Part shown: positions 1,665 through 62,710 of the stretch, one piece after another
Layout: every line of letters starts with the position of its first letter
Position numbering within the stretch: position 1 is the first letter of the stretch
Assembly (NCBI RefSeq): GCF_004010195.1
Contig: NC_057741.1
Location: forward strand, 35,156,202-35,220,201
DNA: 64,000 nucleotides
Reading direction: 5' to 3'
Source of the DNA: Chiloscyllium plagiosum
Taxonomy: Eukaryota
Notes under the pieces: model-generated
Told to the model about the DNA's origin: nothing
Seen by the model: only the letters and a program-made list of their open reading frames with translations
Database searches by the model: none
Position numbers and translations under genes: made by a program

Positions 1665-2800
1665 TAGAATCTCCACGGTGTGGAAACAGGCCACTTGACC
1701 TAACAAGTCCATACCAACCTTCCGAAGAGTTTCCCGCCCATTCCCATTCCCGTACCCTACAACTTTTACATTTCCCCTGACTAATGTACCTAACCTACAC
1801 ATCCCTGAACACTATGGGCAATTTAGCATTCACCTAACCTGCACTTCTTTGGACTGTGGGAGGAAACCCACACAAACCTGATGTTACAACACTGGGTAAA
1901 GCCCTCTGCTACTTTAAACCAGACACACAGAAAAGCTCACCTCATGCGATAATCTGTGAAATTTCAAGTGACAAAGAACTATCCCAAATATCACTATTTA
2001 TAGATAACATTAACAATTTTATTCTTTTAAGTACAAAAGAGAACATTAGACAGCAGCTATTTACAACTCCTTTTTAAACCTATCTTTTACCTCCCACTGT
2101 ATAATACTGGTCCGATTTTAAAAACGAAAAACCTGGAATAAGATGTACACAAAATCATTTTTCAAAACCTGCCAGCTGTGTCAATTCTCCTCTGTACGTT
2201 TTCCTCTGTAGATTTTCCTTGGTGGTCTTTCCTTCAGTCTTCTGTTGTACAAATGTCTCAGAGAGCTTTTCTGACAGCGGTTGGTGCTTCACTGCTGTTT
2301 GCCGTTCTCCCCAACTGTTCAAAATACCCAATTTTATATACCCCAAAACATCAGACCATTTCATTGATTTGGTGTCATCAAAACAATAAAATTCAAATTT
2401 GATTGATTTTGGTATCTTGAGACATAATTTAAACTGGCCGAATCGAATTTGTAATGTACCATGGCAACACAGTTCCAGCTATTTGTTTCACAACCAAATG
2501 TTACATTTTTAAACTGTTCAGCACACCGTGATGTCATTCAGTCCTTGCCAGCCTTCACTCTCCCTTAAAGGTACAGAACTCACCTATACTTCCATAGTGG
2601 GGAGAAAGTGAGGTCTGCAGATGCTGGAGATCAGAGCTGAAAATGTGTTGCTGGAACAGCGCAGCAGGTCAGGCAGCATCCAGGAAACAGGAGAATCGAC
2701 GTTTCGGGCATAAGCCTTTCTTTCATAATACACAGGGAGAATGTGCAAACCCCACAGTCAGTTGCCTGAGGTGGAATCGAACCCGGGTGACTGGCCCTTG
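1665..2800 (-). mobile_element. HE1-type SINE split by a ~700-bp insertion (possible solo LTR, about 1882-2597) and a PLE terminus
   Basis: SINE tail half at 1665-1875 and head half at about 2728-2800; the insert ends in ...TGTAACA on the minus strand. Confidence 0.5.
2600..2722 (-). mobile_element. PLE-terminus fragment
   Basis: Same family sequence GGAGAAAGTGAGG...CGACGTTTCGGGCATAAGCC. Confidence 0.7.
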
Positions 2801-3041
2801 AAGCTAAATGTCTGTCGCCTGCAAAACAAAAAAAGCTTGGATACCTGTATCACCCCACATTAATCATCTTATAACTAACATTTTGCTAAAATAAAATAGT
2901 GTGTTTTCCAGCAAGCATAAGTCCAAATATAGGAAGAAGCGATTCCAAATATCCATGAGATATCAATATTGTTTTCCCTTTCCTGTTTTTTGTTTTGAAA
3001 GTTGTTTCCTCATCATTCAAATATACAAATTTGTTGTTTAG

Positions 3042-3159
3042 GTCTTACAACAGCTTCCACCCAAGCAAGACCGTGTAGAAATATGTTCAATGTCTGATAA
3101 ACAAGAACAGGCGTACGCTGCTCTCTACAAGAAGTTGAAGAAATCAATCAACAGTAATG
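3042..3159 (+). CDS. SMARCAD1: SMARCAD1 coding exon ([39 protein letters not shown])
   Basis: AG at 3040-3041, GT at 3160; 118 nt, in frame with neighbouring exons; 'LPPK' SNF2 motif. Confidence 0.9.
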
Positions 3160-3793
3160 GTACATTCTATATCTGTTAATGACTAATTTTGTGTTGTATG
3201 TTCAATCTAATTAAGTGCAATTGTCTATATTCATTTTTTAAGTTGTACTTTTGTTGTTTTTTTTAGTTGAAAGCTTTTAAAAAGTCTTTCCACTTAGACT
3301 AAAATGATGATACATGTTCATGATGCAGAATCGTCCTTGGCAAATAAATGAAGAATTTATTTTAAACTCAGCTTTGTTCACTCCTCATGTTTTTTTTTTA
3401 ATCAAGGACCTTTACAGTTGTAGTCCCAAGTCTTTCTACAATTAAAAATTAAATGCTGTCTTCGGTGACGCATGGGAGTTTGCATCCACTTTGCTCCATA
3501 GTACTGTGCTGGTGAGAGTAGTATGGGATGATCTTCAAGATCATTATGCATGGATGGTTTTAAGGAACATCACGTGTCACTCTACAATATCAAAACTTGA
3601 AGAAACATGCCACACAACTGCCTTTAAAAAATGACAGTCAAAGTAATTTGTATGAATACATTTATTTGTTTTAATACAAGTCTTCTCAGCTTCGTAAACG
3701 GAAAGTGTGAGAAGCTGTTCAAACAAGTTAACAGAATGCAGTTTGTTTGAGGAATTCTAACCTGAACAATTAACATTTTTATGTTTATCTCAG

Positions 3794-3912
3794 AAAAGAA
3801 CGAGTTATGTAATGTGATGATGCAACTTCGTAAGATGGCCAATCACCCGCTACTTCATAGGCAATATTACACTGTGGAAAAGTTGAGGAAAATGGCTAAG
3901 TTGATGAAAAAG
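3794..3912 (+). CDS. SMARCAD1: SMARCAD1 coding exon ([26 protein letters not shown]...KLMKK)
   Basis: CAG acceptor 3791-3793, GTAAGA donor at 3913; '[12 protein letters not shown]' motif. Confidence 0.95.
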
Positions 3913-5869: not shown

Positions 5870-7925
5870 GACTAATTGCATGCCAAACAGCATAAGCAAC
5901 AAGTGATAGATTGAGCTAAGTGATCCCATTACCCACAGGTCAGATCTAAGTCCTGCTACATCCAGTTGTGTATGGTGCTGCACAAGTAACACTTAGGAGA
6001 AGGTTCTACAAATATCCCCGTACTCAATGATTCAAGAGTTCAAAACACAAGTGCAAAAGATAAAGCTGAAGCGTTCGTAGCAATCTTCAGCCAGAAGTAC
6101 CAAGTGATTGATCCATCGCTGCCTCCTCCAGTGGTCCTCAGCATTATTGATACTAGTCTTCAGCCAATCAGTTCACTCCGTGTGATAACGAGAAATGGTT
6201 GGAAGGACTAAATACTGCAAAGATTGTAGGCCCTGTCAACGTTCTGGCCATAATACTGAAAATTTGTATTTCAGAACTTGTCACTGTCCCAGCCAAGCTG
6301 TTCCAGAACAGTTACAACACTGGCATCTACCCGATAATGTGGAAAATGTCCTGTACATACAGCAGAGCAAATCCAACCCAACTAATTACTGTCTCATTAG
6401 TCTACTTTCAATCAGCAGTGAAATGATGGAAGGTATCATCAACAGTGCTATTAAGTGGCACCTGCTCAATGATGCCCAGTTTGAATTCTGCTACTGCCAC
6501 TCAGCTCCTGACCTCATTACAGCCTTGGTTCAGACATGGACGAAAGAGCTAAATGCCTGAGGGGAGGTGGGAATGGCAGTCCTTGACCGAGTGTGGTATC
6601 AAGAAACTCCAGCAGAACTGGAATCGATAGATATCAGGTCAAACTCTTCACTTGTTGGTGTCATACCTAGCACATCGGAGATGGTTGTGGCTGTTGGAAG
6701 TCAGTCATCTCAGGTCCCAGACATCACAGCAGGAATTCCTCAGCGTAGTGTCCCAGGCTCAACCACCTTTGTCTGCTTCACCAATGACCTTCCCTCCATC
6801 ATAAGGTCTGAAATGGATATATTTGCTGATGATTATACAATGTTCAGCACCATTCACGAATCCTCAGATATTGAAGCAGTCTATGTTCAAATGCAACAAA
6901 ATCTAAACAATATCCAGGCTTGTGCTGAAAAGTGACAAGTAACATGCATTCCACACAAAACCAGGCAATGATACCTGTAATAAGAGACAATTTAATCTTA
7001 ACCCCTTGACATTCAATGGTGCTACCATCACTGAATCCCCAAACATCAACACCCTTGGGTTACCATTAACCAGAAATTCAACTGGACTTGTCACATAAAA
7101 GCAGTGGCTACAAGAGCAGGCCAGAGGCTCGGAATACTGTGGCAGGTAACTCGGCACTGACTCCCCAACATCTTGGAGGAGAAAGTGAGGACTGCAGATG
7201 CTGGAGATCAGAGCTGAAAATGTGTTGCTGGAAAAGCGCAGCAGGTCAGGCAGCATTCAAGGAACAGGAGAATCAACGTTTTGGGCAATAAGCCCGTCTT
7301 CAGGAATGATTCCTGAAGAAGGGCTTATGCCCGAAACGTCGATTCTCCTGTTCCTTGGATGCTGCCTGACCTGCGCTTTTCCAGCAACACATTTTCAGCT
7401 CCCCAACATCTTGTCCCACTGACAAGGCGCAAGGCAGGAGTGTGATGGACTACTGTCCACTTGCATGGGTGAATGCAACTCCAACAACACTCAAACGCTT
7501 GACACCATCTCGGTTAAAGTAGCCCACTTTGTTTGGCATCACTCCCTCCATCACTAATGTTCAGTAACACCAGTATGTACTATCTACAAGATGCATTGCA
7601 AAAATTCACAGAAGATCCTTAGACAGCATCTTCCAAATCCACAGCAACTTCTGTCAAGAAGGATAAGGACAGCAAATACATGGGAACACCATCTACAAGT
7701 TCCCCTTCAGGCCATCATCGTCATGACTTAGAAATGTATTGCTGTTCCTTCACTGTTGATGGGTCAAAATGCTGGAATTTCTTCCCTAAGGGCATTGTGG
7801 GTTAACCTAGAACATTTGGACTGCAGCGGTTCAAGAAGGCAGCTCACTACCACTTTCTCAAGGGCAACAAGATATGGGCAATAGACGTGCTGGCCAGCCA
7901 GTGATGTCCATTTCCCACAAGCAAA
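5870..7925 (+). mobile_element. Decayed LINE (RT-encoding, CR1/L2 group) distinct from the main CR1 family
   Basis: Broken RT frames: 'PTNYCLISLLSI', 'AGIPQRSVPG', 'FADD'. Confidence 0.8.
7176..7398. mobile_element. Fold-back PLE-terminus element with hammerhead core (+ strand 7313-7340)
   Basis: Flanking repeat CTCCCCAACATCTTG (7161-7175 / 7399-7413); imperfect inverted arms; CTGAAGAAGGGCTTATGCCCGAAACGTC. Confidence 0.8.
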
Positions 7926-9410: not shown

Positions 9411-10265
9411 GTTGTTGGGTGGAAATTGAGCTAGTCAACCCACACTGCTTTTATGTTTTCTAGGAATTGGCTTTAGAGATCCATTGGCAGACATGTAGAA
9501 ACCTGGAAGTGATCTGGGATTTGTGAAAAGATGGGTGACTAGTTCTTGCATTGCACTTTTTCATAATTTTCATCGTGTAGGAAGGAAAATTCTGATTAGA
9601 TTTATTTTTCATATAATGCATTATGTAAAGGAGTGAGCATGAATTTGCTATTTGATTATGAACTTGCTGCTCACTCAAGTCCCTGCATGTTTAAATTTTA
9701 GAATGTTCCCTACCACAAGAAACTGCCAAAACAAGCTCACATTCCTTAATATTTTCATATCCCATTAATGTTTTATCTCTCTCTGTCCTTCCCCCAGTTC
9801 ATTTCAGTTTAAAGTGGATGATTTTCCCTTTATTTACTTCTAACCAGCAACTCCATGCCCACCCCCCCAAAAAAAACTAATACCAACTAGTTATTGTTAC
9901 AGTCCTTTGAGTTGATGTAATTTCATGATCGCAAAATTCTTTTTTTGCCTACACCCATTTCAGTGTACCCCAGCACAGTTATACTACTAATAGATTCTCC
10001 CAATTGTTTTGTGTTTCTGGTCATTGAGAGAAATAGAGTGCAGACTCAAAGGACTCTATTTAAAGATTAGTTTCTACCTTTCAAACTTTCATTTACACTT
10101 TGGACTGGAATGACATTGAAACAGTTTTTACTACTGGGAATGCAAGAAAAGGGTTCAGGAAGGAGTGGATGGATTGGAGCCATTTTTATACCTAATCAAG
10201 AATTGCAATATTTTCATTGTTTTCACCTTCAGTATGACCTCGACTGTAAGACTAGAGCAGAGTGT

Positions 10266-10482
10266 GAAAGTGAGGACTGCAGATGCTGGAGATCAGAGTC
10301 CAGTTTAGAGTGGTGCTAGAAAAACACAGCAGGTCAGGCAGCATCTGAGGAGCAGGAAAATCCATGTTTCGGGCAAAAGCCCTTCGTCAGGAATGAGCTT
10401 TTGCCCAAAACATGGATTTTCCTGCTCCTCGGATGCTGCCTGGCCTGTTGTGCTTTTCTAGCACCACTCCAAACTTGACTCT
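10266..10482. mobile_element. Fold-back PLE-terminus element, variant subfamily with decayed hammerhead
   Basis: Same GAAAGTGAGGACTGCAGATGCTGGAGATCAGAG terminus; inverted arms around 10395. Confidence 0.75.
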
Positions 10483-11417
10483 ACAATTTCAGTGTTGACC
10501 AAAAAAATCTCTCATTAGGAGAAGTAAAGTTTAAATAACAGTATGTCTGTCTGTTTTCTAGAGGTATTACCTCAGATGCTTATTTAATTGGCAGACTTAT
10601 AGCAGCTGATTTAATCCTTTATTTGATGTACTGTGTTGCTTTGCACCGAAGCATTTATGCTAATCTGTTTCTGGTTGATGGTGTCAATATCAAAGTAGTA
10701 CAGTGCAACTGGCATTAATCTTGCAATACAAACATTTCATCTTGGAAGATATTGTAAGGTTAATTGAATAGTCACTGTGCTACACAATATCTAGATTGCG
10801 AACACTTAAAGTAGCCTCAATATTGCACAGATCCAGTTGTTGTCAGAGGTGAGTCTCCAGCCTATCTTGTTCAGGCTTTGAGAGTAAGCAGCATTAATGT
10901 TTCGAGTGCAACAAAATATTAGATTCCCTAAGTTATCATATTCCTTCAGATATATTCTTGATATGTTTTTTCCTTTTTCTAGCTATTAATTCAGTGTGGG
11001 TTAGATTAATTCAATTTGCTGCTTGTTTCCCTGGATGCTGCCTGACCTGCTGCGCTTCTCCAGCAACACATTTTCAGCAGTAACACTAAGGAGCCCTTTA
11101 AAGAAATTGAACTGTGTTTTGATATAACTTCCAACTCGTTTCAATCAGTAAATGAATGATACAAAATGTGTAGTAATTAGTATTTCAGTAAATCATAAGC
11201 TTAACATAGAATCTTTTCTGAAAAATAAGGGCTTTTCAACCATAATCATTCATATAAAACTGAACTTTATGAAAAGTGAGCTCTGTCAATTTTGGGGAAT
11301 TTTGTGGAGGTTTTTGCTTCGTGAGGCTCTAGAGAGTTATTTCACTTCTCTGCAGCTCACCTCATTGTGTTTGCATCATATCGCTATGGTACTTCCCTTG
11401 CACAACTGTGTACTCGA

Positions 11418-14849: not shown

Positions 14850-15905
14850 CAATACCTGACCAATTCCAATCCCCTACTCTGAGGATGACCAATTTCACCA
14901 TAGAAAACCCAGATGGCCTCTTCCTTCAAAGACAGCAATTTCCCTTCCCATGTGGTTGATGATCCCTCCAGTGCGTCTCCTCCATTTCCCGCACCTCTGC
15001 CCTTGAACCACATGCCTCCCAATGCAACAAGGACAGAACCCCACCCCCAGTCCTCGCCTTACACCCCATCAACCCCCGTATGCATGGCATCATCCTTCGC
15101 CACTTCCGTCACCTACAAGCAGGCCCCACCACTAGGGATATATTTCCCTCCCCATCCGTATCAGTATTTTGGCGAGACCATTCCTTCTGTGACTCCCTTG
15201 TCAGATCCACAACTCCCCACCAACCCCACCTTGCCCTGCCACCGCAAGAATTGCAAAACCTGCGCCAACACCTCCCCCTTACCTCCGTCCAAGGCCCCAA
15301 GGGATCCTTGCACATCCTGTACTTCCACCAGTGTCGTCTACTGTATCCATTGTCCGATGTGGTCTCCTCTACATTGGGGAGACAGGACGCCAACTTGCAC
15401 ATCGTTTCAGAGAACATCGCTGGGGCACTCGCACCAATCAACCAAACCGCCCCGCGGCTGAATACTTCAACTCCCCCCTCCCACTCCACTAACGACATAC
15501 AGGTCCTGGGCCACCTCCATTGCCAAACCCTAACCACCTGATGTCTGGAGGAAAAACTTCTCATATTCCGCCTAGGGATCCTGCAACCACGTGGTATTAA
15601 TGTGGATTTCAGTAGTTTCCTCATTTCCCCTCCCCCACCTAATCACAGTCCCAAGCCTCCAACTCAGCACTGCCCTCTTGACCTGTCTGTTGTCTTTCCT
15701 GTCTATCAGCTCCCTCCTCCTCTCTGACCTATCACCTTCTCTCCTACCTTAATCTGCGTATTTAATTCTAAGCTGCTTCCCCATTCCTCTCCAACCCCAC
15801 CCCACCTCCCTTTATTCTCTCAGCCTCCTGGCTCACAAGCTTCATTTCTGATGAAAGGCTTATCCCCGAAACATCGATTCTCTTGCACCTCTGATGCTGT
15901 CTGAC
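14850..15905 (+). mobile_element. Degenerate Penelope-like element 3' part, same superfamily
   Basis: MASSFKDSNFP, a CKTC cysteine motif and an IFRLG.LQP.G.N remnant; ends in a decayed hammerhead CTGATGAAAGGCTTATCCCCGAAACATC. Confidence 0.8.
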
Positions 15906-15906
15906 T

Positions 15907-20192: not shown

Positions 20193-21770
20193 GTGAGTTA
20201 TGCAATTGAATATCCCACTTTTTTTCTTTTCTAAATGCAAACTGTGTCCCAATTTCAGTTAGTTTGCCATCTAGTAGTATTGGAAATAAAAGTTGACTAC
20301 ACAGAACAGAAATGTTTTTCCATATACAAAGCTCTTTATTTAAATTCTGTATTCTCTTGGACCCCATATTCCATGAGAATGTATGTTCTCTTGAGGAAGC
20401 TTACGAGGTGGAATTGCTTTGCATTGAAAACATGGCAGGATTGTAGCTACCTCCCAGAAATTAAATGACACAAGGGTGCATTTGAAGGTGGATGCCATTT
20501 TATTGGGACTGGTCTAAAAAGAAGCAGATTTTAAGATAGTGTAAAAATAGTAAGTTGGGGATTTAAACTTTCTCAATATTAACTGGGATAGACAAAGTGT
20601 AAAAGGCTTAGAGGGGTCATAATTTTTAATGTGTCCAGCAGAACCTTGTAAGCCAGGATGTAGAGTGTCTTACAAGAAAGAGGGCCATTCCATGCCTGCC
20701 ACTACATAGGAAGCTCCAGCCGGAGCTCACCTGCTCTGCCCATTCTTCTTTTTTTTTTCTTCCCCTCAGTGCTTCTCTTCTCCTTCTTCTCCTCCTTTAT
20801 CCCTCTTTGACTTCTGGCCTCCAGCGAGTGACAATTCCTGGCCTGGCACAATGGCCTCCCAGCGTAATAACCTTCCGCAGCGGCCCCCTTGTAAGGTGCA
20901 GTGACCCGACCTGGCACAGCAGCCTCCTGGCATGCCATATTGTCAGTGTGGTATGGAGCCAGGTCCCAGTGTGGACTGGAAGTTAGATGCCAGCATGGTC
21001 AGCTCTGCTGAACATTTATTTCTGTTATGCTAGACCATTTTATTTTCTGTATTTTCTACATCTTGTAGCAAACAAAACTGTGCCTCGGTACTTTTTGTAG
21101 CTAAGCTGTTGCTGTAATTGGCTACGTATAAACGTTTGACTATACTCAGAGTATTTGTGACAGTGAAGGCTGTCTGTTCTTCTATTCTGATTTTCGGGAA
21201 CAAAGCTAGATAAGTAGTGGAAGTTCAGTGGAGAGCGTTTCAGTGATGATGACCATAATCCTTGCTGGTTATGGTAATCATGGAAAAGGACAAGGATGAA
21301 TTGGAAATAAAGGTTCTGAATTGGGGGCAGGTTGATTTTAACATAACAGGTTCTGACTGAAGTGAACTGGGAGAATCTACTCATGGGAAAATCTGTCAGC
21401 AATTGGAGTCTTTCAAAATGGGGCGATGAATGATAGGACCATATGAAGTACAGTTGATCAGAGGCCCTGATATGTCTATATTCCCAGATTCTTGAAAGCA
21501 ATAAATCAGGTGGTTGAAAAAACATATGGGATACTTAACTTTGGGGTGAAGCACTGAATATAAAGCAGCAAAGTTATGATGGAGCTGTATACCATAGTAG
21601 TTAGTTTGCGGATGCAGTATGGTGTGCTGTTTTGGGTGTCTCACAATTGGAAAAATATGATTGCTTTAAAAAGGTTGCCAAAGAAATTTGCCAGTATGTT
21701 CCCTGGGCAGAAATCTTTCACATATGAAGAAAGACTGACTAGGCTGGGGTTGTTTTTGTTTGAGCTGAAA

Positions 21771-23250
21771 ATGTGTTGCTGGAAAAGCGCAGTAGGTCAG
21801 GCAGTATCCAAGGAGCACGAGAATCGACTTTTAGGGCATGAGCCCTTCTTCACAAATGAGGAAAGTCTGCTAAGCAGGCTAAGATAAAAGGTAGGGAGGA
21901 GGGACTTGGGGGAGGGGTGTTGGAAATGCGATAGGTGGAAGGAGGTTAAGGTGAGGGTGATAGGCCGGAGTGGGGGTGGGGGCAGAGAGGTCAGGAAGAA
22001 GATTGCAGGTTAGGAAGGTGGTGCTGAGTTCGACGGTAGGGACTGAGACAAGGTGGAGGGAGGGAGAAATGAGGAAACTGGAGAAATCTGAGTTCATCCC
22101 TTGTGGTTGGAGGGTTCCTAGGCGGAAGATGAGGCGCTCTTCCTCCAACCGGCGTGTTGCTATGGTCTGGCGATGGAGGAGTCCAGGACCTGCATGTCCT
22201 TTGTGGAGTGGGAGGGGGAGTTGAAGTGTTGAGCCACGGGGTGGTTGGGTTGGTTGGTCCGGGTGTCCGGGGAGGGGAGGGAAATATATCCCTGGTGGTG
22301 GGGTCTGTTTGGAGGTGGCGGAAATGACGACAAATGATACGATGTATATGGAGTTGGTGGGGTGGTAGGTGAGGACCAGTGAGGTTCTGTCCTGGTGGCG
22401 ATTGGAGGGATGGGGGGGCTCAAGGGTGGAGGAGCGGGAAGTGGAGGAGGAGCAGTGGAGAGCATCGTTGACCACATCTAGGGGGAAATTGCGGTCTTTG
22501 AAGAAAGAGGCCATCTGCGTTGTTCGGTATTGGAACTGGTCCTCCTGGGAGCAGATGCGGCGGAGACGAAGGAATTGGGAATATGGGATGGCGTTTTTAC
22601 AGTGGGTAGGGTGGAGGAGGTGTAGTCTAGGTAGCTATGCGAGTCGGTCGGTTTATAGTAAATGTCCGTGTTGATTCGGTCGCCCGAGATAGAAATGGAG
22701 GGGTCTGGGAAGGGGAGGGAGGAGTCTGAGATGGTCCAGGTAAATTTGAGGTTGGGGTGGAAGGTGTTAGTACAGTGAATGAACTGTTCAACCTCCTCGT
22801 GGGAGCACGAGGCAGCGCCAATACAGTCATCGATGTAGCGGAGGAAAGGGTGGGGGTGGTGCCAGTGTAGCTGCGGAAGATGGACTGTTCCACATATCCT
22901 ACAAAGAGGCGGGCATAGCTGAGGCCCATGCGGGTGCCCATGGCTACTCCTTTATTTTGGAGGAAGTGGGAGGATTGGAAAGAGAAGTTGTTCAGAGTGA
23001 GGACCAGCTCAGTCAGTCAAAAGAGGGTGTCAGTGGAAGGGTACTGGTTGGTACGACTGGAAAGGAAGAAGCAGAGGGCTTTGAGTCCTTCGTGATAGGG
23101 GATGGAGGTGTATAGGGACTGGATGTCCATGGTGAAGATAAGGCATTGGGGACCGGGGCAGCGCAAATCCTGGAGGAGGTGGAGGGCGTGGGTGGTGTCC
23201 CGGACGTAGGTGGGGAGTTCTTGGACTAAGGGGGACAGGCCCGTGTCGAG
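21771..23250 (-). mobile_element. Penelope-like retroelement (RT and GIY-YIG remnant), 5'-truncated
   Basis: ORF remnants MGTRMGLSYARLFVGYVE (RT), MASFFKDRNFP and RLEEERLIFRLGTLQPQGMN (endonuclease C-terminus); its 3' end is the same sequence as the short elements. Confidence 0.85.
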
Positions 23251-23845
23251 GACCTCAAATTTACCTGGACCGTCTCAGACTCCTCCCTCCCCTTCCTAAA
23301 CCCCTCCATTTCTATCTCGGGTGACCGAATCAACACGGATATTTACTATCAACCGAATGACTCCCACAGCTACCTCCCACCCTGCCCACTGTAAAAACGC
23401 CATCCCATATTCCCAATTCCTTCGTCTCCACCCCATCTACTCCCAGGAGGACCAGTTCCAATACCGAACAACCCAGATGGCCTCTTTCTTCAAAGACCGC
23501 AATTTCCCCCCAGACGTGGTCGACGATGCTTCCCACCACATCTTCTCCACTTCCCGCTCCTCTGCCCTTGAGCCCCGCCCCTCCAATCGCCACCAGGACA
23601 AAACCCCACTGGTCCTCACCTACCACCCCACCAACTCCATATACATCGTATCATCCATCGTCATTTCCGCCACCTCCAAACGGACCCCACCACCAGGGAT
23701 ATATTTCCCTCCCCTCCCCTATCAGCGTTCCGAAAAGACCACTCCCTCTGTGACTCCCTCGTCAGGTCCACACCCACCAACAACCCAACCTGCACTCCCA
23801 GCACCTTCCCCTGCAACTGCAAGAAATGCAAAACTTGCGCTCACA
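23251..23845 (+). mobile_element. Inverted partial copy of the adjacent Penelope-like element
   Basis: Begins as the reverse complement of about 22270-22751; encodes KNAIPYSQFLRL...MASFFKDRNFP. Confidence 0.85.
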
Positions 23846-24395
23846 CTCTCTCTCTCTCTGAGACTGAGGTCAACAAAACTAGTAGAGACAAAGGTAGGTT
23901 AGATAAGAAGAAATGCCCTTTTTTATAGAGGAGCCAGTAAACAAGGGACGTGGATTTTAAGATGGGACTGGAGGAAGAATTTATTCACCCAGAACTCCTT
24001 GCCTGAAAGGGTGGTGGAAGCTGGAATCATCAGAGCATTTTAAGAAGTAGTTGATCTTTTGAAGTACTATATCAAACAGGTTTATGGGCCAAGTGCTGGA
24101 AAAATGAGACTAGAGCGGATAGGTGCTTGATGATTGTGTGGACATAATGTGCTGAAAATTGTAAAACTTGTGACTCTAAAAAGAATAATGTACTAATCAC
24201 GCAACATCCAATCTTCTCTAATTCTATCCTTCATTCCCTGCCGCCCTTTTTTTTAGAAAAGGCTTTATATGATTGTTATCTGTTTCAGAGAATGCCAACT
24301 GTAAGCTAGCATTTCCAGGGTTTTGCCTTGCCTGTCTTCAAAATTGCTGTAGATGTTGTTAAATTTGCCCTAATCTGAATTTCTTTGTTTTTAAG

Positions 24396-26999: not shown

Positions 27000-28895
27000 T
27001 TCTAAAGCTCAAGTTGTTAAGAAGTATCAAGTGTAAGAGAATGGTGAGAGATGGACACCTTCATGGCTGATCCTGTATGTTGGAACCACTTGGAAATGGG
27101 TGAGATCCTAAATGAATATTTCTTGTCAGCATTTATGGTGGAGAAAGATGCACAACTTAGGAACTCTGAAGTAATTCGTGATGTCTTGAAAAGAGTCCGT
27201 GTTACAGAAGAGGAGATGCTGGATGTCTTAAAATGCAAGAAGATCGAGAAATCTTTGGGACCTGATCAAGTGTATCCCAGGATTGTGAGAAGGTAGGGAA
27301 GTAATTAAGAGTCCCCGAGCAGAAATATTTGTATCATTGACAGCCTCTGGTGAGGTGCCGGAATACTGGAGGGTGACTAATGTACCATTATTTAAGAAAG
27401 GATGCAAGGAAAAGCTTGGGAATACAGACTGATGAGTGTAATATCAGTGGTGGGTAAGTTGTTCAAGAGATTCGAAGCGACAGGATCCACATGTATTTGG
27501 AAGGGCAAAATCTAATGGGGGATAGTCACCATAGCTTTGTGCATGGGAAATCATGTCCCTCAAATTTGAGTTTTTTAAAGATGACCAAGAAGATAGATGA
27601 AGGCAGAGCAGTATACATTGTCAAATTGACTTTGGACAGGCCTTTGACAAGATACCACATGGTAGATTGGATAGTAAGATTAGATCACATGGGCTGGAAA
27701 TGTGTTGCTGGAAAAGCGCAGCAGGTCAGGCAGCATCCAGGGGCTGGAAATGTGTTGCTGGAAAAGCGCAGCAGGTCAGGCAGCATCCAGGGTGCTGGAA
27801 ATGTGTTGCTGGAAAAGCGCAGCAGGTCAGGCAGCATCTGATCTCCAGCATCTGCAGACCTCACTTTCTCCTCTTAGATCACATGGGATCCAGGGAGAGC
27901 TAACCAGTTGGATACAAAACTGACTTGATGGTAGGAGACATGGATGTTTTCAAGACTGGAGGTCTGTGTTCAGTGATATGCTACAAGATTCAGTGCTGGA
28001 ACCACTATTCATTTATAAAAACAATTTGGATGAGAATATAAGTGGAATGGTTAATAAATTTGCAGATGACACAAATTGGTGGGTTAGTGGACTGTGAACA
28101 AGGTTGTCTAAGAGTACAATGGGTTCTTGATTAACTGGGCTAGTAAGTCAAGGAATGGTGGATGGAGTTTAGTTCAGATAAATGAGATGTTGTATCTTGG
28201 TAAGACAAACCAGAGCAGGACTTAAACAACAGGGCTTTGGGCAGAGTGATGAACCAAAGGGGTGCAGGTACATAGTTTCTTGAAACTGGTGTCACAGGTA
28301 GACAAAAGTGGTGAAGGTGTATGGCATTCTTGTTTTCATCAGTCAGCAATGAGTCCAGGAGTTGGGATGTCATATTTCAGCTGTACAGCACATTGTTAAG
28401 GCCACTTTTGGAATAGAATTCTGGTTGCCCTGCTACAGGAAGGATGGCATCCAACCGGAAAGAATGCAATAAAGACTTAGAGGATGATACTTGGACTGGA
28501 AGGTTTGAGTTCTAAGGATAGGCTGGAACATTTTCTTTTTCCTGGAGTGTAAGAGCTTAGGGGGTGACCTTAAGAGGTTTATAAAATCATGAGGGCCATC
28601 GATAAGGTGAATAGCCAAGGTCTTTTCCCCAGGTTAGGAGAGCCCAAAACTAGGGGCCATAGGTTTAAGTTGAGAGGGGACTTGAGGGGCAACTCTTTCA
28701 TGCAGAGGGTGGTGCCTTTATGAAATGAGTTGGCAGAGGAAGTGTTGGTAAAATTAGAAATTTGGACAGATACATGATAAAAGGTTTAGAAGGGTATAGA
28801 CCCAAACACATGCAAATGGAACTGGTTCAGTTTAGGAAACCTTGATGGCATAGATGAGTTAGGCCGAAGGGCCTATTTCCATGCTGTGAGACTCT
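27000..28895 (+). mobile_element. CR1/HER1-like LINE, decayed
   Basis: 'GEILNEYF', 'GPDQVYPR', FADD and the CR1 3' tail. Confidence 0.85.
27694..27873. mobile_element. PLE-terminus insertion with three tandem ~50-bp units plus inverted end, inside a CR1 LINE
   Basis: TSD TTAGATCACATGGG (27680-27693 / 27874-27887). Confidence 0.8.
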
Positions 28896-31966: not shown

Positions 31967-32902
31967 CTGAAAGCAAAGAAGCATATCAATAATTTTGCAA
32001 AACAGCAACTTGAGTTCAGTACAGACAATTACCAGTGTAATCTTACTGTGTGCAGCCAGTTTGAAGAAAAAAAATCACCACTGTGCATTGTCTATCCCTT
32101 CTGCTCAGTATTCCAATATTTTAATAACCATTATTTCCTCTTCCCATTTTCCAAAGAAATTGGGCACTATTAATTTCTCAGATACTAGTCACTGATATGA
32201 TTGTTCATGGGAAACCAGTTCTTCTAGATTGCCAGCCTAGTAATCACATGAGGTTTTGAAGTTTATGATTAATCATAGCAATCAATCTGTCAATTAAACT
32301 ACAACAGATGAAGCAATAGAAATCCCAGTAGTGGGGTATCCTTGGGGAACACCGATCTCTCAAGCACATGACAATTACTACACTTTGTGTGTCATAGCTT
32401 ATTCATATGTCCCAGACAAAGATGCTTGAATCTAGATTTTGAATATTGTTAGATTATTAAGTGGCAATGTGATATCATAGCATGTCCCAACCTTCTGACT
32501 TTTACATCCAGACAATTCCAACAACAGCGATTCACTAACTCAAAATGGAACAGTTTTATGCCATACTGTCCCAGGGAATCTGAGACCAGTTATAGTTTAT
32601 TTCCCAACGCACACGTTATTGAATGCTTTGTTCTTAATTAATCTGGAACCTTCCCAGTCAGTCTAGCTAATTGAATAGACTAAATCACGCACAGAGAAGA
32701 AAGCAACAATAAAATGGTTCTGTTCACTGAATTTTCCCTTGTTCCCAGTGCAATTATAATGGAGAACAGATTTTCTCACTGGGGAAGGTGGATGTGACCT
32801 TTTCATCAACAGCCTCAATGGGTGAGACTTCAAGATAGAATTGACCATTGAGTCACACTGGTTGGTCTCTATTGCAAATCTCCTAGGCATGAATTATATT
32901 CA

Positions 32903-33032
32903 GGGAGGAGAAAGTGAGGACTGCAGATGCTGGAGATCAGAGCTTAAAAATGTGTTGCTGGAAAAGCGCAGCAAGTCAGGCAGCATCAAAGGAACAGGAG
33001 AATCGACGTTTCAGGCATAAGCCCTTCTTCAG
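32903..33032 (-). mobile_element. PLE-terminus element with hammerhead core in HPGDS sense orientation
   Basis: Flanking repeat GAATTATATTCA (32891-32902 / 33033-33044); minus strand reads CTGAAGAAGGGCTTATGCCTGAAACGTC. Confidence 0.8.
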
Positions 33033-33089
33033 GAATTATATTCACATCATTATTATACTTCATAATAAGTTTCAATAAATTGTACTCAC

Positions 33090-34552: not shown

Positions 34553-34570
34553 TGGTTCTTAATTAGAGAT

Positions 34571-34700
34571 TAGATTAGAGTGGTACTGGAAAAGCATGTC
34601 AGGTCAGGCAGCATCCGAGGAGCAGGACCTGCTGTGCTTTTCCAGCGCCACTCTAATCTAGACTCTGGTTTCCAGCATCTGCAGTCCTCACTTTTGCCTA
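34571..34700. mobile_element. Fold-back PLE-terminus element lacking the central hammerhead
   Basis: TSD TCTTAATTAGAGAT (34557-34570 / 34701-34714); inverted arms. Confidence 0.75.
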
Positions 34701-35307
34701 TCTTAATTAGAGATGTCTTTTCTCACTGCAAATTTCCATGACAATGCCTCCTGCCGGTCTCAGCACCTTACAGCAGTGAAACACAAACTCTTGAAAAGAT
34801 GCTCTGTAATTGGAAAAGTGGGAGGCTATAACATTTCGATATCCAGAAGCTCTGAACAAACTGCATTGAAATATGTCTTCAAACAAGAAATCTTCCAATT
34901 TCTTATTTCCACTAGGCCATTCTTTCACATCTTATCCTGCTGAAGGCATTGTTTTGAAAGTAGGGTTATGAGCACGGAGGCTAAATAATTATGAAAATGA
35001 TATTGCCTCATTGTGAAATATCCATTTTAAATAATTGATACGAAATTGGCTGCCTTCTGCTGAGATCCAATAGGTTAAGATTTCAGCACAGATAAAGAAA
35101 GGTTAACACATTACTTTCTGAGACAGGAAAATGGAAGTCTACTTTTTATAGTGTTCGAACTGTTTCACAAACTCAGTGTCCTCAACGTGCTTTACAATAA
35201 GTGACGTATTATTAGAGTTGCTATTGCGATGTAGGAACTATGGCAGCTAACTTGCTCATACATAGCTCCCACAAATAGAAGTGTGGTGCATACATGCATA
35301 TATATAT

Positions 35308-40559: not shown

Positions 40560-42460
40560 AGCATGAAACAGGGGAACTTATATGGAGAATCAAAGAAATC
40601 ACCGACCAACTAGATGTATACTGTACTTTGGTTCTGGCTTCCCAAAGGAGGACACAAATAACATCCTAGAAACATTGGAAAACTCCAGGTCCAATGAGAA
40701 AGAGGAAAACATTCAATGTGTGTTTGGAAATTAAGTTGGTGAAACTGACCTGATTAAAGGCCCATAAATCCCCAGGACCCAATGACCCACGTCCCAGAGT
40801 ACTGGTGGCCCTAGACAATGGTAGATGCGCTGGTGGTCATCTTTCAAGATTGTCTAGAGTCTGAGGCAGCTCCTACGGATTGAAGGATAGCTCATTTAAC
40901 CACACTAATTAAGAAAATGAGGTAGGAAGTAAACAGGGAATTACAGACCCAAGTTGACCTGATGTTGGTATTAGGGGAAATGCTGCAGTCCATTATAAAG
41001 CATTTAATAGGACAGCACTTGACAACAGTGATAGGATTGGACAGAGTCAGCATGGATTTATGAAAGGGAAATTGTGCATGACAAATCTACTGGAATTTTT
41101 TGAGGATGTAACTAGTAAAGTTGCTGAGGGGAAGCCAGTGGATATATTTTAGTTGGACTTTCAAAAGGTTTTCAATGAGGTCCCACAGAAGATATTGACA
41201 TGTAATATTAATGCACATGAGATTGGGCTTGTGCACTGACATGGATGGAGAACTGGTTGGCAGACAGGAAACAATGAATAGGAGTAAAAGGATAATTTTC
41301 CAAGTGGGAGCCTGTGACTAGTGGGGTACCACAGGGTTCAGTGCTTGCACCCCAGCTTTTCCTTATATGCATTAATGATTCAGATAGAGTGAACTAAATG
41401 TAATGAATCCACATTTGCAGATGACACAATGTTAGGTGGGAGGTGAACAGTGGGGGAGATACAGAGACTTTTCATTGTGATTTGGACAGGTTGAATGAGT
41501 GGCAAATGCATGGTAGATGAAGTCTAATGAGGATAAATGTGAGATAATCCACTTCAGTAGCAAAAACAGAAAAACAGACCTTTCTCTGAATGGCAATACA
41601 TTGGGAAAAGAGGGAGGTGCAGGGAGATCTAGGTTCCCTTATACACCAATTGCTGAAAGTAAGCGTGCAGGTGTAGCAGGCGGTGAAGAAAGTAAATGGC
41701 ATGTGGGCCTTCGTAGCGAGAGGATTCGAGTACAGGAGCTGGGATGTCTTGCTGCCGTTGTCCAGGACTTTGTTGAGACCTGGAGTATTTTATGCAGTTT
41801 TGGTCTCCTTATCTGAGGAAGCATGTTCTGGCAATGCAGAGAGTGCAACAAAGGTTTATCAGACTGATTCCTAAGATGGCAGGACTGATGTATGAGGAAA
41901 GTTTGGATTGGTTCAGACTATATTCAGGTAGGCAGAAGTGAGGACTGCAGATACTGGAAACCAGAGTTTAGATGCACCACCACTCTGATCTAAACTCTAG
42001 GACTATATTCACTGAAGTTTAGAAGAATGCTCATCGAAACCTGAAAAATTCTAACAGGACTAAACAGGGTAAACACAAGAAGGATGTTCCTGATAACTGA
42101 GGAATCCAGAACCATGGGTTGCAGTTTAAGGAAATGGGATAGGCCATTTAAGACTAAGATGGTTGGAAATTTCTTCACCCAGACAGGGTGAGCCTGTGGA
42201 ATTGTCTGTCAGAAAATGTTTTAAGTCAAACCTTTGAATGTTTCAGCAAGAACTTGACAATGGTGATAGGATTGGATAGTTACATACAGTTGACAACGGT
42301 GATAAGGAGTTAGATACAATTCTTACAGCTAAAGGGTTCAAAGGGTATAGGGAGAAAGTGGGAACAGGGCACTCAGTTGGATGATCAGCCATGATCATGT
42401 TGAATGGTGGAGCTGGCTCAAAGGGCTGAATGGCCTCCTCTTGCTCCTATATTCTATGTT
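40560..42460 (+). mobile_element. CR1-like LINE, decayed
   Basis: [26 protein letters not shown] and FADD remnants. Confidence 0.85.
41927..42000. mobile_element. Very short PLE-terminus insertion inside a CR1 LINE
   Basis: TSD GACTATATTCA (41916-41926 / 42001-42011); family terminus plus short inverted piece. Confidence 0.7.
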
Positions 42461-42809
42461 TAAATGTTTTAAAATAGACCACTTCGTCCAACTGACCCAT
42501 ACCATCATTTATTGTTCACATCAGCCTCTGTGATCCTCTCAATCTATCCTCCTTTTTCTTTTCCTCCCCATTCAATTACTTACTCCCTTAAAACATCTTG
42601 TTTGAAGCCTTCTGTGGATTTAATGATGATCTTTTAATTCAGAAGTCAAATCTCTAGTCTAATTTGATAGACTACTCAGAACATCCAGCACACAAAGAGA
42701 CATTCAGCCCATCTAGCCTCTGCTGGTATTTATCCTTCATATATTCCATTGCATTTACCATGCCTTTCCAATCTATTCTTTTTAATCACAGGATGTAGGC
42801 ATCACTGGC

Positions 42810-42907
42810 ATGTGGGCATTCCTGAAGAAGGGCTCATGCCCGAAACGTCGATTCTCCTGCTCCTTGGATGCTGCCTGACCTGCTGCGCTTTTCCAGCAAC
42901 ACATTTT
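42810..42907 (+). mobile_element. PLE-terminus element with hammerhead core 42822-42849
   Basis: TSD CATCACTGGC (42800-42809 / 42908-42917); CTGAAGAAGGGCTCATGCCCGAAACGTC. Confidence 0.78.
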
Positions 42908-43545
42908 CATCACTGGCTTGGCCAACACTTATTGCTCATGGGTTACATGGATTAATAGTCTAGTGATAATACCACTAGGCCATCACTTACCCGGATCTAG
43001 TTTTCATTTGAAAGCATATAAGGTATTAATCTTATAAATTTTCCATTGAAGCGCATTTGATTTGACTTGATTATTGTCACATGTACCCAAGTGCAGAGAA
43101 CAGTTTTGTTTTGCGTGCAATTCAGCAGAATGGGATTATTCTAACCAATTACAGTGTAATTTCTCTTCATTCCCACTTGTCTATTAGTAACTACCTTACA
43201 TGTAGGGCCCCTAAATGTTTTGGTTTTTCCACATGTGGAAACACTCTCCATGTCTACTCTATCCAATGCATTCATAGTTTTACCTGTGTCAATTCCATGT
43301 CTTCTCAAATGAAAAGTATTGGAATGTACCTTTAGTGATGGAAATTCTTGCTGAAACCCATAGGTAAACCAACAGAGCACAAGAGCGCATATCGTGTGAG
43401 GAAAGATGTTAATGTTGGGCCATTTCAGTTTCCCAGCATTAATTTCCCTTTAATTGTTTAGCTGGCGCAGAGTTCAAAACTTATTTGCTGTTTGGCCTTG
43501 CCAACTGATTAATTCAAAGCACATTCCTACCATCAAACAACTATT

Positions 43546-46203: not shown

Positions 46204-46337
46204 AGGAGAAAGTGAGGACTGCAAATGCTGGAGAGTCAGAGTTTAAAAGTGTGGTGCTGGAAAAGCACAGCAGGTCAGGCAGCACCTGAGGAGCAGCAGG
46301 GTTGATGTTTTGGGCATAAACCCTTCATCATTCCTGA
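46204..46337 (-). mobile_element. PLE-terminus fragment
   Basis: Family terminus with degenerate hammerhead on the minus strand. Confidence 0.65.
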
Positions 46338-53412: not shown

Positions 53413-53750
53413 GTAAATAATGGAGCCAATTGAAAAAGAGAGAGAGAGAAATAAACTGAGCAAAAACATTTGCAGGAGGATAGTGTAAAGCATTATTTTT
53501 ATTAAGAAGCCTAGCAATAACCTATCTAAATAGTTATTATATGTACATTAGATCTGACACATTCATTTGACTTCTGTAACTCAATAGGATGGAGAATACA
53601 GTTAAACTAGTTGGCTTAATGGAACATATGTATAATAATAATTGTGACAGTCAGTCAGTCATTAAGCACGTGAGAGACCTTTATATCTCAAAATCACCTA
53701 AAATGATGTTAAAGAGGCTGTTACTCTGATTCTTTGGACATTGTACCTGG

Positions 53751-53977
53751 TTGAAACTTTATTGCTGGAACAGCACAGCAGGTCAGGCAGCATCCAGGGA
53801 ACAGGAGATTCGACGTTTCGGGCACAGGCCCTTCTTCAGGAAATGAAGATTCCTGAAGAAGGGCCTGTGCCCGAAACGTCGAATCTCCTGTTCCCTGGAT
53901 GCTGCCTGACCTGCTGTGCTGTTCCAGCAATAAAGTTTCAACTTTGATCTCCAGCATCTGCAGACCTCACTTTCTCC
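53751..53977. mobile_element. Short fold-back Penelope-derived element with 13-bp TSD
   Basis: TSD ACATTGTACCTGG (53738-53750 / 53978-53990); perfect 93-bp inverted repeat 53750-53842 / 53850-53942. Confidence 0.85.
53847..53886 (+). ncRNA. Minimal type I hammerhead ribozyme motif (PLE type)
   Basis: AGAUUC-CUGAAGA-A-GGGC(CUGU)GCCC-GAAAC-GUC-GAAUCU: 6-bp stem I, intact core, 4-bp stem II, palindromic ACGU in place of stem III; predicted cleavage after C53880. Confidence 0.75.
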
Positions 53978-54619
53978 ACATTGTACCTGGGAATCATTTA
54001 CATGGATTCTGAAACGCTTCCAAATATAACAGTGATGGAGGGGTATTAAAGTGTGCTGCTATTCTTCTTACTAATTTGGGTTACAAAAGTTAAAATTGAT
54101 GGGAAATTCCTCCTTCCGTTCAAGAAAATACAGTGAATTTCTTCCACATACACCGGAGGGAGTTAATTAACTACTTTTATTCACTCATGGGATGTGGGCA
54201 TCACTGCCTGGGCCAGCATTTAATGCCCATCCCTAGTTGCCATTGAGAAGGTGGTAGTGAGCTGCCTTCTTGAACTGCTGCTGTAGATAGACCCACAATG
54301 CCATAACGGAGGCAAGTCTAGATCTTCAGTCTTATACACTTCCAGCTAATCCATGAAAGACTGGAGATTTCAGAATGGAAAGGGAGAGGACCATGCCTAT
54401 ATTTCAAGTTCTCAATTTGAATTCAGAACATCAATAAAAAACAGTTGGCAGAGCATCTCTGTAAAAGGGCTAAAGGAAATAACCTTCTCGACAGCAATTT
54501 CCCATTTTTCTATCTCAGATTTTACAGTTTTTAATCCCTGCTGACAGACAGGAAAAGACAAAAAACTGAGAGAAGTTCTCCCACTGAAAGGTGAAAGGTG
54601 AGAAAAGGCATTGTACTGA

Positions 54620-60070: not shown

Positions 60071-61574
60071 ATATGAATATTATATATATGTAAAAACATG
60101 GGCATTCCCCTTCAGCACAAATGGCATGACTTGGCTCCGCAGTTCTACAGTATACTATTCATGCAGCATAGATCAGGTATCCTATTCCTCAACAGCTGTC
60201 TGCTCTGAGTTTTACAGGTCTAATTATCATCATATTTCTCTGAGTGTCCTCACCCTCAAGTCATAACAATACTGATGGTGTAGCTTTCTTAGTGACCTAA
60301 CTAATAATACTCTGGTACATAAGTTGCTGAAAAAAATGTAATTCAATAGCATCTCTGAGCTATTCACATAGCTTTCCAGGTTATATGCTTCTTTAAGGCT
60401 AACTAAATCTGTATATCAAAGAGCTCTAATCTCTCTTCTGATCAAACAGAAAAATGAGAGCTGGGCTCTCCTCCTCAAAAGATTTCAGTATGTTGCACTT
60501 TCTATCTCTCCTCCATCTGTGTTTTTAGCTTTCAGTTCTCTTTTGCATCTTGTCACAAAGCAACTTTCATAACTTGTTCCTTTTGGCACTGCTTCCAGAC
60601 CAAAGGTTGGCAAGTCACTGAAGAAAGGTACAATCAATTCCTTTGCAATTAATAAAAATTCCTAAAAAATGTTTTCCAAATGCCTCATTACGATAATTAA
60701 AAGTTACAGACAATTTTTAAAGAAAACCATATTTTCTTAATGCCTTGCTTCTGGCAGCTGTCTTGTTCGTTCTGCCTGGTCATACAAGTTCTGGCAAAGT
60801 AGGAGAAAGTTGACAATGAACCTTGTTTGGTGAGGTATTTTGGTTTATGTGCTAACACAAAGAGCTTCATTTAGGTTTTCCATTAGATTTCACCGGAAGA
60901 GACAACCCACTAACTTGCTAATAAAATTGATGTTCAGGACAAGATTGTGCTATCATCACCATATGGAATAATAAACCAAGATAACCAAATTTACTACACA
61001 ACAACCCCAACAAACAATCAAAACAAAGGATTTCACCTTTTGTGATTTATAATTAAACACAAATCAAAACCAAAGCATGATTTAAGATACAAATTATACA
61101 TTAAAAGAAGGCATGTGTTACTTAAACTAGTTTACACAACAAAATGATGTTGTGCATGGGGAAGCATTAGGATCAGTCATTAATGATTGTAATGCTGTAC
61201 TCTTAGAGAAATCCGAGATGATCATGGTTTTTTGAAAGGGACATCGTGTTTATCCAATTTATTGGTGTTCTCTGAAGGAATAACATTCACCATGAACAAG
61301 GAGGAGCTCTTCATGTTTTGTACTTGGACTTCAAGACTGCAATTGATGAGGTGCCAGTGTAAAAGATTATCCCTCAATGTAGAAGCTATTGGAATGTGCG
61401 GTGATACGCTACCATGGATGGAAAATTGGCTAGCTGGCAGAGATCAAGAAACAATGAATGAAAATTCCTAAAAATGTTTTCCAAACACTTCATTAAGATA
61501 ATTAAAAATTACACAGACATTTTTTTAAAGGAAACAAATTTTTCTTAATGCCTTACCTCTGTCTGCTAAAGGGA

Positions 61575-61738
61575 TATCAGCGTCAAAAAGTATGGCACTG
61601 GAAAAGCACAGCCAATCAGGCAGCATCCAAGAGCAGGAAAGTCAACAATTCGAGCATAAGCTCTTCATTCCTATGCTTTTCCAGCTCCACACCTTTTGAC
61701 TCTGATCTCCAGCATCTGCATTCTTCACTTTTTCCTGC
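61575..61738. mobile_element. Degenerate fold-back PLE-terminus element
   Basis: Inverted arms GGAAAAGCA / TGCTTTTCC and family end TGATCTCCAGCATCTGCA. Confidence 0.6.
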
Positions 61739-62587
61739 TAATGGGGTATGACAATTGTTTTGGGAAAGTTACTGGTGGGTCTCAGCATTTCACAGGCAAA
61801 TCTGTCCTATATGTCCTACATCTACATGTCAAGTATTCCTGTTATATATTCTCATGAGCACTGTTACAATTGAAACTCCTGTGTAAACCTGCCATATTGA
61901 AATGAAATGGTCACACCAGCACTGAGACATCTTAGGACCTGTGACAATACTTCAGAAAACACATCTGCTGGAACCAACTCCATTTCTCTGCTTCCCAGCT
62001 GCAGTCATTCTTTCATATTGTTGCACATGCTTATTCTTCATCATTGAAGATGACCATAACATCAATTGGAATTCATAAGGTTAAGTTTCAGGTACAATAC
62101 AAAGACAAATCAGTCCAGGTTGAACAAACACAAAAAAAATTTGATGCTTACACAAAATATCTCACTAATTTAAACAACAGATTATGCTGTTTCACAGTAT
62201 TATAATTGGAATGGAACTTCCCTCCAACAAAATTCTACTGTCAGGTCAAAATGATGTTCTGTTTTGCACATAATTGAATAACATGAAGTATGGATTTCAG
62301 TGCTGGTGTGATTTCAAGAGTCTAGGCCAATAATCCAAGTGATTGGTTGACCAAATTAAACAGCATGTTCCTCTTCAGTTGTTCATAGTACATAGTGGAC
62401 ACACTATAGTCAACTAGACTGCACTTGTAAAACTCAAAACAAATTTGTAATGTTACATGTGATTTTTTTAACTGGGAAGCACTTACTGATCAATCCCAAA
62501 CGTATTAATCCCAACAACTCATTTAAGATGTTCAATTTATGCCACAAGCAGCTGATTTAAGCTTCCGAGAAGCAAAATTAACATGTA

Positions 62588-62710
62588 GTCCTGATGGAAG
62601 GTTCCGATCTGAAACATCAATTCCCCTCCTCCTGTGATGCTGCTTGACCTGCTGTGCTTTGACCAGCTCCACTCTGACTCCCCAGCATTTGTAGTTCTCA
62701 CTATCTCCGA
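62588..62710 (+). mobile_element. Degenerate PLE-terminus fragment
   Basis: CTGATGGAAGG...GAAACATC followed by the family 3' end. Confidence 0.55.

Follow-up and report, generated by a model that had tools for sequence, protein, structure and literature searches.

A 64,000-nt stretch of the genome of the shark Chiloscyllium plagiosum (assembly GCF_004010195.1, contig NC_057741.1, positions 35,156,202 to 35,220,201 of the forward strand), referred to here as the window, contains a family of short repeats associated with a hammerhead ribozyme motif. BLAST and a profile search of the window found the repeat at all 13 loci named in a preliminary description made from the letters alone, together with two coding remnants and three older relatives; all copy counts refer to the window. 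The short copies are the 3' ends, or pseudo-long terminal repeats (pLTRs), of Neptune-type Penelope-like elements (PLEs), and most of those that reach the hammerhead stop at its upstream edge. Positions within the repeat are given in the coding sense from the predicted hammerhead cut, with C3 at -28 and the 5' edge of stem I at -32. Statements about published work refer to the portions of the cited texts that were available.

The source element was recognised from the coding remnants. Elasmobranch proteins match a 157-amino acid frame (22481-22951) at up to 89%, the closest being from Chiloscyllium punctatum and further members of this group. A relative, P0003, has reverse transcriptase (RT) and GIY-YIG domains and is mapped by tblastn over 22062-23130, 23251-23859 and 14921-15628. 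The coding arrangement of RT and C-terminal GIY-YIG in a single ORF was recognised by way of P0003, the PLE open reading frames (ORFs) of the window being broken, and a direct Pfam scan of nine PLE fragments from the window returned no family. A CxxC linker, FPCNCKKCKTC, lies in the frame at 23572-23928, and a similar motif in 14904-15461. Such a linker between RT and endonuclease is a mark of Neptune and Nematis (PMC8557442); judged by resemblance, the element would belong to Neptune rather than Nematis. The remnant at 21762-23859 is itself head-to-head, with a minus-strand arm running from the RT to the inner end of the repeat and a plus-strand arm without the 3' part. The short repeat had been said to form the 3' end of the coding copies at 21771 and about 15850. 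The fixed tail end is on neither, the 15850 copy being interrupted at about +31 by sequence resembling a short interspersed element (SINE) and the 21771 copy stopping at the inner, tail-less site. The tail is tied to the PLE end by the short copies and by 347 of 1327 aligned RNA reads, which run from the inner end into the tail.

In order, the unit comprises the hammerhead, a further stretch of about 60 nt up to an inner end (+60 to +68), and a tail of 33-35 nt that closes with an outer end at about +98. The tail is the fixed end said to be common to most copies; it is present at 11 of the 13 loci, and in all seven complete two-armed short copies it is confined to exactly one arm. The inverted segment, described as variable in length, varies at one end only; its outer end is fixed at the inner site, which lies about 33-38 nt in from the end of the tail. 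Direct repeats of 10-15 bp had been reported around seven copies, and exact target site duplications (TSDs) were indeed found at 7 of the 13 loci: 7176 (15 bp), 27694 (14), 32903 (12), 34571 (14), 41927 (11), 42810 (10) and 53751 (13). The 61575 copy has an 11-bp direct repeat with one mismatch. When the same search was made at 300 random places, a score of at least 11 was obtained in 3. No ATT end motif is present in the TSDs of the 8 sites tested, and 60 of the 100 TSD bases are A or T, compared with 59% in the background; a preference for AT-rich targets was not apparent (60% vs 59%). The AT-rich consensus of loose read ends is what mixed flanks would give. The TSDs of the independent insertions at 32891 and 41916 share their terminal eight letters, TATATTCA, which is possibly a weak target preference, or chance. 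All eight head-to-head junctions of the short copies and the coding one differ.

The inner end has some features of its own. Loose ends of reads pile up there, at 21762-21768, in all three informative public runs. At 27691-27838 there are three identical 50-bp inverted tandem arms, each beginning at the inner site, produced either by repeated re-priming or by later slippage; similar back-jumps to the inner site are also present as contig joints in public reads. Just before the inner end (42885-42903 and equivalents) lies a 5-bp hairpin, 95% paired over 14 arms. Covariation was not seen across these 14 arms; one compensated pair was noted by eye in the old copy 34467. The hairpin may correspond to the stem loop at the anole start site.

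The ribozyme motif belongs to the minimal type I hammerheads, and its stem III is a palindromic ACGU. The copies had been called hammerhead-bearing as a group; nine of the 13 loci span the motif, while those at 11026, 27694, 34571 and 41927 are without it. Among the 12 short arms aligned here, 5 (from 4 loci) retain all 11 core letters and a C17 that can be cleaved, and the core of the coding copy 15850 is also fully intact. The stem II loops UUAU, UCAU, CUGU and UUUU were confirmed and the stem is paired in 92.7% of cells. For the proposed selection on stem II the evidence is modest, ie three compensated pairs in one sequence each, and a covariation score equalled in 3 of 500 shuffles, a control that ignores relatedness. 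Rfam at its gathering score gave no match to the unit, and whole arms folded no better than their shuffled counterparts in any of the 5 folds made (z from -0.38 to 1.20). Cofolding of two 53751 hammerheads gave intermolecular stems I and III. Metazoan PLEs are known to carry minimal type I hammerheads with a palindromic stem III (PMC4209133). The motifs described there by Cervera and de la Pena (2014) share with ours the bulged base before stem II, G10.1-C11.1 and the palindromic 15.2-16.2, and they too are scattered singly, by the thousand, a pattern put down to truncated PLEs, with some close opposite-strand pairs. Stem II here, in contrast, has 4 bp, and neither a shark family nor a breakpoint map was found in the available part of that text.

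The 5' ends were mapped using the longest arm of each of 15 loci. Four stop before -24, nine stop between -37 and -25, and two continue into the ORF. Thus 9 of the 11 loci that reach the hammerhead stop 25-37 nt upstream of the predicted cut, at the edge of stem I; none of the 15 has its longest arm ending within 5 nt of the cut. Compared with a constant stop rate fitted to the downstream part, the pile-up has P = 2e-11, and P = 3e-6 at four times that rate; when the doubtful locus 2600 is omitted, P = 9e-8 at twice the rate. The preliminary description regarded random breakpoints and interleaving with full PLEs as the signs of ordinary truncation. The copies do interleave, as ordinary ones would, but the breakpoints are not random, 9 of 11 falling within a 15-nt window at the 5' edge of the hammerhead. 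The pile-up is also seen in the single-armed copies 32903, 42810 and 62588, and is thus not an inverted-microhomology effect. Upstream of -38 the sequence of the short arms is unlike both coding copies, with 3-11 of 30 letters matching.

Three older hammerhead-bearing relatives, at 31009-31100 (+), 34467-34556 (+) and 50017-50134 (-), also start at the stem I edge (3 of 3). They have a branch-point-like motif, a pyrimidine tract and CAG directly before a conserved ATG, resembling a 3' splice site. The 34571 copy was inserted at the end of the 34467 copy. A splice acceptor at the stem I edge of the family itself, similar to that of Drosophila, was considered and discarded, AG being absent at -34/-33 in both coding copies.

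Table 1. Copies of the repeat and coding remnants in the window. (-) and (+) give the strand of single arms; 5' ends and arm starts are relative to the predicted cut.
Positions	Strand	Copy	Features
2601..2722	-	2600	Single arm, degraded hammerhead through tail; 5' end about -25; no TSD; adjoins SINE-like piece
7161..7413		7176	Head-to-head; 15-bp TSD (7161-7175, 7399-7413); arms 7178-7308 (-) tailed and 7309-7401 (+) tail-less with intact core; 5' ends at -33/-32
10263..10482		10266	Head-to-head, UUUU-loop subfamily; TSD not found; arms 10263-10397 (-) tailed, 5' end -35, and 10397-10482 (+) tail-less, 5' end about -18
11027..11078	+	11026	One tail-less arm, about +11 to inner end; no hammerhead, no TSD
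14874..15906	+	15850	Decayed coding PLE: thumb, CxxC linker, GIY-YIG region, 3' untranslated region (UTR), intact-core hammerhead; ends about +31
21762..23250	-	21771	Decayed coding PLE, left arm: RT (YIDD), thumb, endonuclease end, 3' UTR, hammerhead with C3 at 21853 and its cut predicted between 21826 and 21825; stops at inner tail-less site
23251..23859	+	21771	Inverted head-to-head partner arm of coding PLE; 89% like left arm; 3' part lost
27680..27887		27694	14-bp TSD; three tandem 50-bp inverted tail-less arms 27691-27838 (-) and lone tail 27837-27871 (+); no hammerhead
32891..33044	-	32903	One arm, hammerhead to tail, 32907-33036; intact core; 12-bp TSD with 4-nt overlap with 5' end
34557..34714		34571	Head-to-head; 14-bp TSD; arm starts about +6 and +28; no hammerhead
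41916..42011		41927	Tail arm (-) and 20-nt inverted arm (+); 11-bp TSD; no hammerhead
42800..42917	+	42810	One tail-less arm 42817-42909; intact core; 5' end -33; 7-8 nt filler; 10-bp TSD
46205..46336	-	46204	Tailed arm, 5' end about -27; then 7-10 nt, possibly an inverted-arm start; then sequence like a long interspersed element (LINE)
53738..53990		53751	Youngest head-to-head copy, no difference between its arms over 89 columns; 13-bp TSD; intact core in each arm; arms 53751-53848 (-) tail-less and 53849-53977 (+) tailed; predicted cut between 53880 and 53881
61563..61745		61575	Old head-to-head copy; 11-bp TSD (1 mismatch); inverted arm with its 5' end at about -26; tailed arm either short or with an internal deletion
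62589..62708	+	62588	Old single arm, hammerhead to tail; 5' end -30; 8-bp flanking repeat with 1 mismatch, at chance level

Four public runs were aligned to 21731-22180, two of RNA (X21 and X22) and two of DNA (X1 and X9, the latter from a second organism). The boundary at the hammerhead edge is visible in one RNA run and in one of the two DNA runs. In X21, 103 reads lose homology 5-6 nt beyond 21852 and continue in mixed sequence (agreement 0.41), 195 align through 21853, and the depth across the edge in three bins is 410, 206 and 186. In X9 homology is also lost 5-6 nt beyond 21852, in 90 contigs, which continue in mixed sequence with a median of 194 loose letters. Two X9 contigs join the inner end head-to-tail to the hammerhead edge, ie they represent rare tandem hammerhead dimers of ~95 nt. 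No read of X22 aligned to this interval. Of the aligned RNA reads, 92% continue into unlike sequence, as expected from read-through of host transcripts.

The short pLTR insertions, often head-to-head, are probably the work of the enzyme that the element encodes, which would prime inside the element's RNA and run off a template end putatively placed at the hammerhead's front edge. The GIY-YIG endonuclease would make a staggered cut 10-15 bp wide, as the TSDs suggest. Each cut strand would then prime RT inside the RNA, at the tail end (about +98) or at the inner site (about +60 to +68). The 3' ends at these places are those observed here, and the manner of priming is taken from in vitro work on the anole element; the presence of the tail on one arm only is accounted for by two priming sites, one at the tail end and one inner. 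Most cDNAs would stop at about -38 to -25, where the pile-up is seen and where the RNA may end, either by initiation of transcription at the initiator-like TCATT or by 5'-3' decay halted at a protein-bound ribozyme. The two cDNA ends would finally be joined through 0-4 nt of microhomology, or one would be joined to the target. A putative RNA end at the ribozyme edge accounts for the pile-up whether a copy has one arm or two.

At the boundary, the coding copies have TCATT, which we take to fit the initiator consensus. Transcription of Drosophila Penelope also starts inside the pLTR, from an initiator/downstream promoter element (Inr/DPE) promoter (PMC2377424). On an RNA beginning at the boundary, the priming sites would lie about 95 and 130 nt from the 5' end, which the enzyme would then run off. 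An ATG at about +18 opens a frame that is free of stops through the tail in 7 of 7 arms and shifts frame in three; the start codon is GTG in one arm and CTG/TTG-like in another. The stop-free frame from about +18 through the tail places the priming sites near the 5' end of the mRNA, and in elements of rotifers (PMC3846280) and the anole (PMC11167929) the ORF also starts within the pLTR and tail. For the ORF to be copied, the enzyme would have to jump from this end of the RNA onto the 3' pseudo-LTR, or the transcript would have to be a tandem one, and the short copies would therefore be failed first jumps. In retroviruses, minus-strand strong-stop cDNA is primed internally and runs off the RNA 5' end, and failed first jumps can be likened to such DNA; the short copies are likely dead on arrival. 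In the twin priming of L1, two primers on a staggered cut yield an inversion. The present family differs from both in that its second priming site is fixed and there is no poly(A), tRNA primer or integrase.

Much of this has precedent among PLEs. Insertions with an adjacent inverted 5'-truncated copy, a tail of 30-40 bp at one end and a short TSD have been reported (PMC8557442, PMC3846280), and the units of endonuclease-bearing (EN+) PLEs (Craig et al. 2021; Arkhipova et al. 2013) resemble ours in their head-to-head arms, a tail on one arm, a minimal hammerhead in the pLTR and, likewise, a probable ORF start inside the pLTR and tail. The TSDs are 10-15 bp here compared with 8-10 bp in the rotifer PLE (PMC3846280), and the copies here are mostly pLTR only with 5' ends clustered at the stem I edge, whereas the available texts of those papers give high or variable 5' truncation. 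In vitro, the anole Poseidon element PAc cuts and extends both target strands, and RT begins at two internal sites, one on either side of the tail (Frangieh et al. 2024, PMC11167929). The present family is similar in its adjacent internal start sites bracketing the tail, in the extension of both strands and in that the ribozyme cut is not an end. It differs in being Neptune-type and known from sequence alone, and in having no AT-rich target bias in 8 sites; the part of the PAc text available describes no 5' pile-up.

Several points weigh against a template end at the ribozyme edge. The breakpoint set comprises 15 loci, and the 15-nt window was picked after the data had been seen. The window has no full-length PLE, and none of 15 candidate proteins begins with the pLTR peptide, although this is a weak test. 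In a second PLE family of the window, presumably Poseidon-like, 3 of 3 arms pass beyond their ribozyme. The boundary at 21852 is not among the six X1 positions listed, from a much longer list. Read starts or ends do not pile up in X21, a poly(A) single-cell library that is probably unable to show starts, and the counts may be inflated by subfamilies whose upstream sequence differs, since these too would clip at 21852. An extra G before the 5' end, such as a cap would leave, was considered from one X9 joint and the X21 consensus and then dropped, since the inverted arm accounts for the G in 53751 and the case of 7176 is ambiguous; a cap G is thus not demonstrable. The X9 dimer joints, and two subfamilies with no coding partner in the window, count against the view that the short copies are no separate family. 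Finally, the Drosophila start is ~120 nt upstream of the ribozyme and is separated from it by an intron (PMC2377424).

The boundary could instead be set at the level of the DNA or the enzyme, on a long template, by stalling of RT at a pyrimidine-rich tract or a bound protein, or by endonuclease trimming at ATT before the core. We regard this as unlikely. [quoted passage not shown] All 3 copies of the older family, whose sequence is different, likewise start at the stem I edge, which speaks for position over an initiator sequence. However, the ends are spread over 14 nt, the TSDs show neither the ATT end motif nor AT enrichment, and RT usually stops on the 3' side of a structure, not just past it.

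It is rather improbable that the short copies come from a non-autonomous SINE- or retrozyme-like RNA of ~130 nt, with an internal promoter in the short copies and mobilised in trans by the PLE enzyme, one of two options offered in the preliminary description. In its favour, there are 13 short copies, of defined length, against 2 coding ones, the UUUU and CUGU loop subfamilies have no coding partner in the window, and the two X9 contig joints represent rare hammerhead dimers. Frog retrozymes, moreover, come from pLTRs (10.64898/2026.07.22.740005). Retrozymes are defined there by at least two consecutive hammerhead-bearing tandem units, and non-LTR retrozymes are present in the one cartilaginous fish sampled. 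Ours share with these non-LTR retrozymes (Li, Clavereau and Pollet 2026) the pLTR origin, the lack of coding sequence and the type I hammerhead, but are single or head-to-head. None of the 13 loci contains tandem hammerhead units, the sole tandem in the family (27691-27838, in the 27694 copy) being without a ribozyme, and no 5' end lies at the cleavage site. The anole enzyme needs RNA extending 172 nt into the ORF, past the main start site at 111-118 (PMC11167929), which a short copy may lack; the RNA reads, as noted, mostly look like host read-through.

The tree also bears on this. It was built from 92 columns and 17 arms with 200 bootstrap trees, and 9 of its 14 inner branches are weak. The 42810 copy is sister to the coding copy 21771, from which it differs at 6 of 88 columns (support 94/92), the two coding copies are grouped together in 0% of the 200 bootstrap trees, and of the 3 pairs of partner arms that allow the test, 2 cluster as pairs. 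A separate family, whether SINE or retrozyme, is therefore unsupported, there being no tandem hammerhead units in the window, junctions that all differ and a tree in which short and coding copies interleave. The other option, truncated and inverted PLE insertions, fits both the interleaving and the published layout of PLEs with a tail on one arm. Two kinds of SINE were considered and rejected: one with its own master lineage and fixed architecture, the arms being interleaved with coding copies and the junctions all different, and one with a tRNA, 7SL or 5S RNA polymerase III head and an A-rich or simple-repeat tail, the unit aligning wholly to the PLE 3' end, with a fixed non-repetitive tail and no Rfam match.

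Loss of the ORF from longer insertions by recombination between direct pLTRs, leaving solo pLTRs, is very unlikely. Solo pLTRs are known in rotifers (PMC3846280), and the single-armed, TSD-flanked copies 32903 and 42810 have this form. The 7176 and 53751 copies, with both arms ending at the boundary, would however need two such events, the arms of 53751 are still identical, and a fixed 5' pLTR edge would itself require explanation. Cleavage by the hammerhead as the determinant of the template 5' end, which the intact cores of young copies and a palindromic ACGU stem III permitting a dimer (53751 cofold) would allow, has a negligible chance of being correct and is largely refuted by the breakpoint map, as 0 of 15 loci have a longest arm ending 5 nt or less from the cut, no loose end or start at 21825-21826 is among those listed, and the anole element dispenses with cleavage, uncleaved RNA being its main substrate (PMC11167929).

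The second PLE family, unrelated to the first and labelled Poseidon-like on the assumption that its resemblance is a guide, has its own hammerhead and lies at 13600-14267 and 16833-17179, with arms that extend through the ribozyme and on into the ORF. Both of its copies have the tail on one arm only, and the TSDs are 13 and 15 bp. The first is a head-to-head copy with the 13-bp TSD and an assembly gap in its middle; the second has the 15-bp TSD, a 17-nt inverted tail piece and short-repeat filler. LINE fragments, which we take to be CR1-like, and SINE-like repeats occur at 18479-19389 (with an RT match at 18482-19156), 27458-27903, 43547-45800, 49187-49582 and 51761-52198, and several PLE ends (21771, 27694) sit within such repeats. 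An exon-like frame at 4066-4434 (+) had no Pfam match but is presumably similar to the helicase end of a remodeler of the SMARCAD1 type, so that some of the window may be intronic.

The known part of these observations is that the repeats are PLE end insertions and not a new mobile family, their layout having been published. The part that may be new is the fixed, non-random 5' edge. Neither a printed 5' pile-up nor a strong-stop model was found in the literature searched, which excluded most subscription journals (including Arkhipova 2006) and Fig. S2 of PMC11167929; no description of a shark PLE was found by title or abstract start, and nothing on structure was found in PMC12602865. How pseudo-LTRs and partial tandems are regenerated has been stated as an open question (PMC2377424), and for the anole element, with internal priming near the ORF start in vitro, the available text does not explain how the ORF is copied (PMC11167929). 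We tentatively suggest that Neptune PLEs might use a strong-stop step, starting at the first base of the hammerhead, priming ~95 and ~130 nt downstream, running off and jumping to the 3' pLTR. Repeated jumps could then regenerate pLTRs and partial tandems, sharks could hold fossils of failed jumps genome-wide, and self-jumps could seed retrozyme dimers.

As ordinary PLE debris, the repeat should be annotated as Penelope/Neptune and not as a SINE or a miniature inverted-repeat transposable element (MITE). If the template does end at the ribozyme edge, the template-jump model would be testable with cap analysis of gene expression (CAGE) and the existing in vitro system, and there would be a route from PLE ends to retrozyme dimers.

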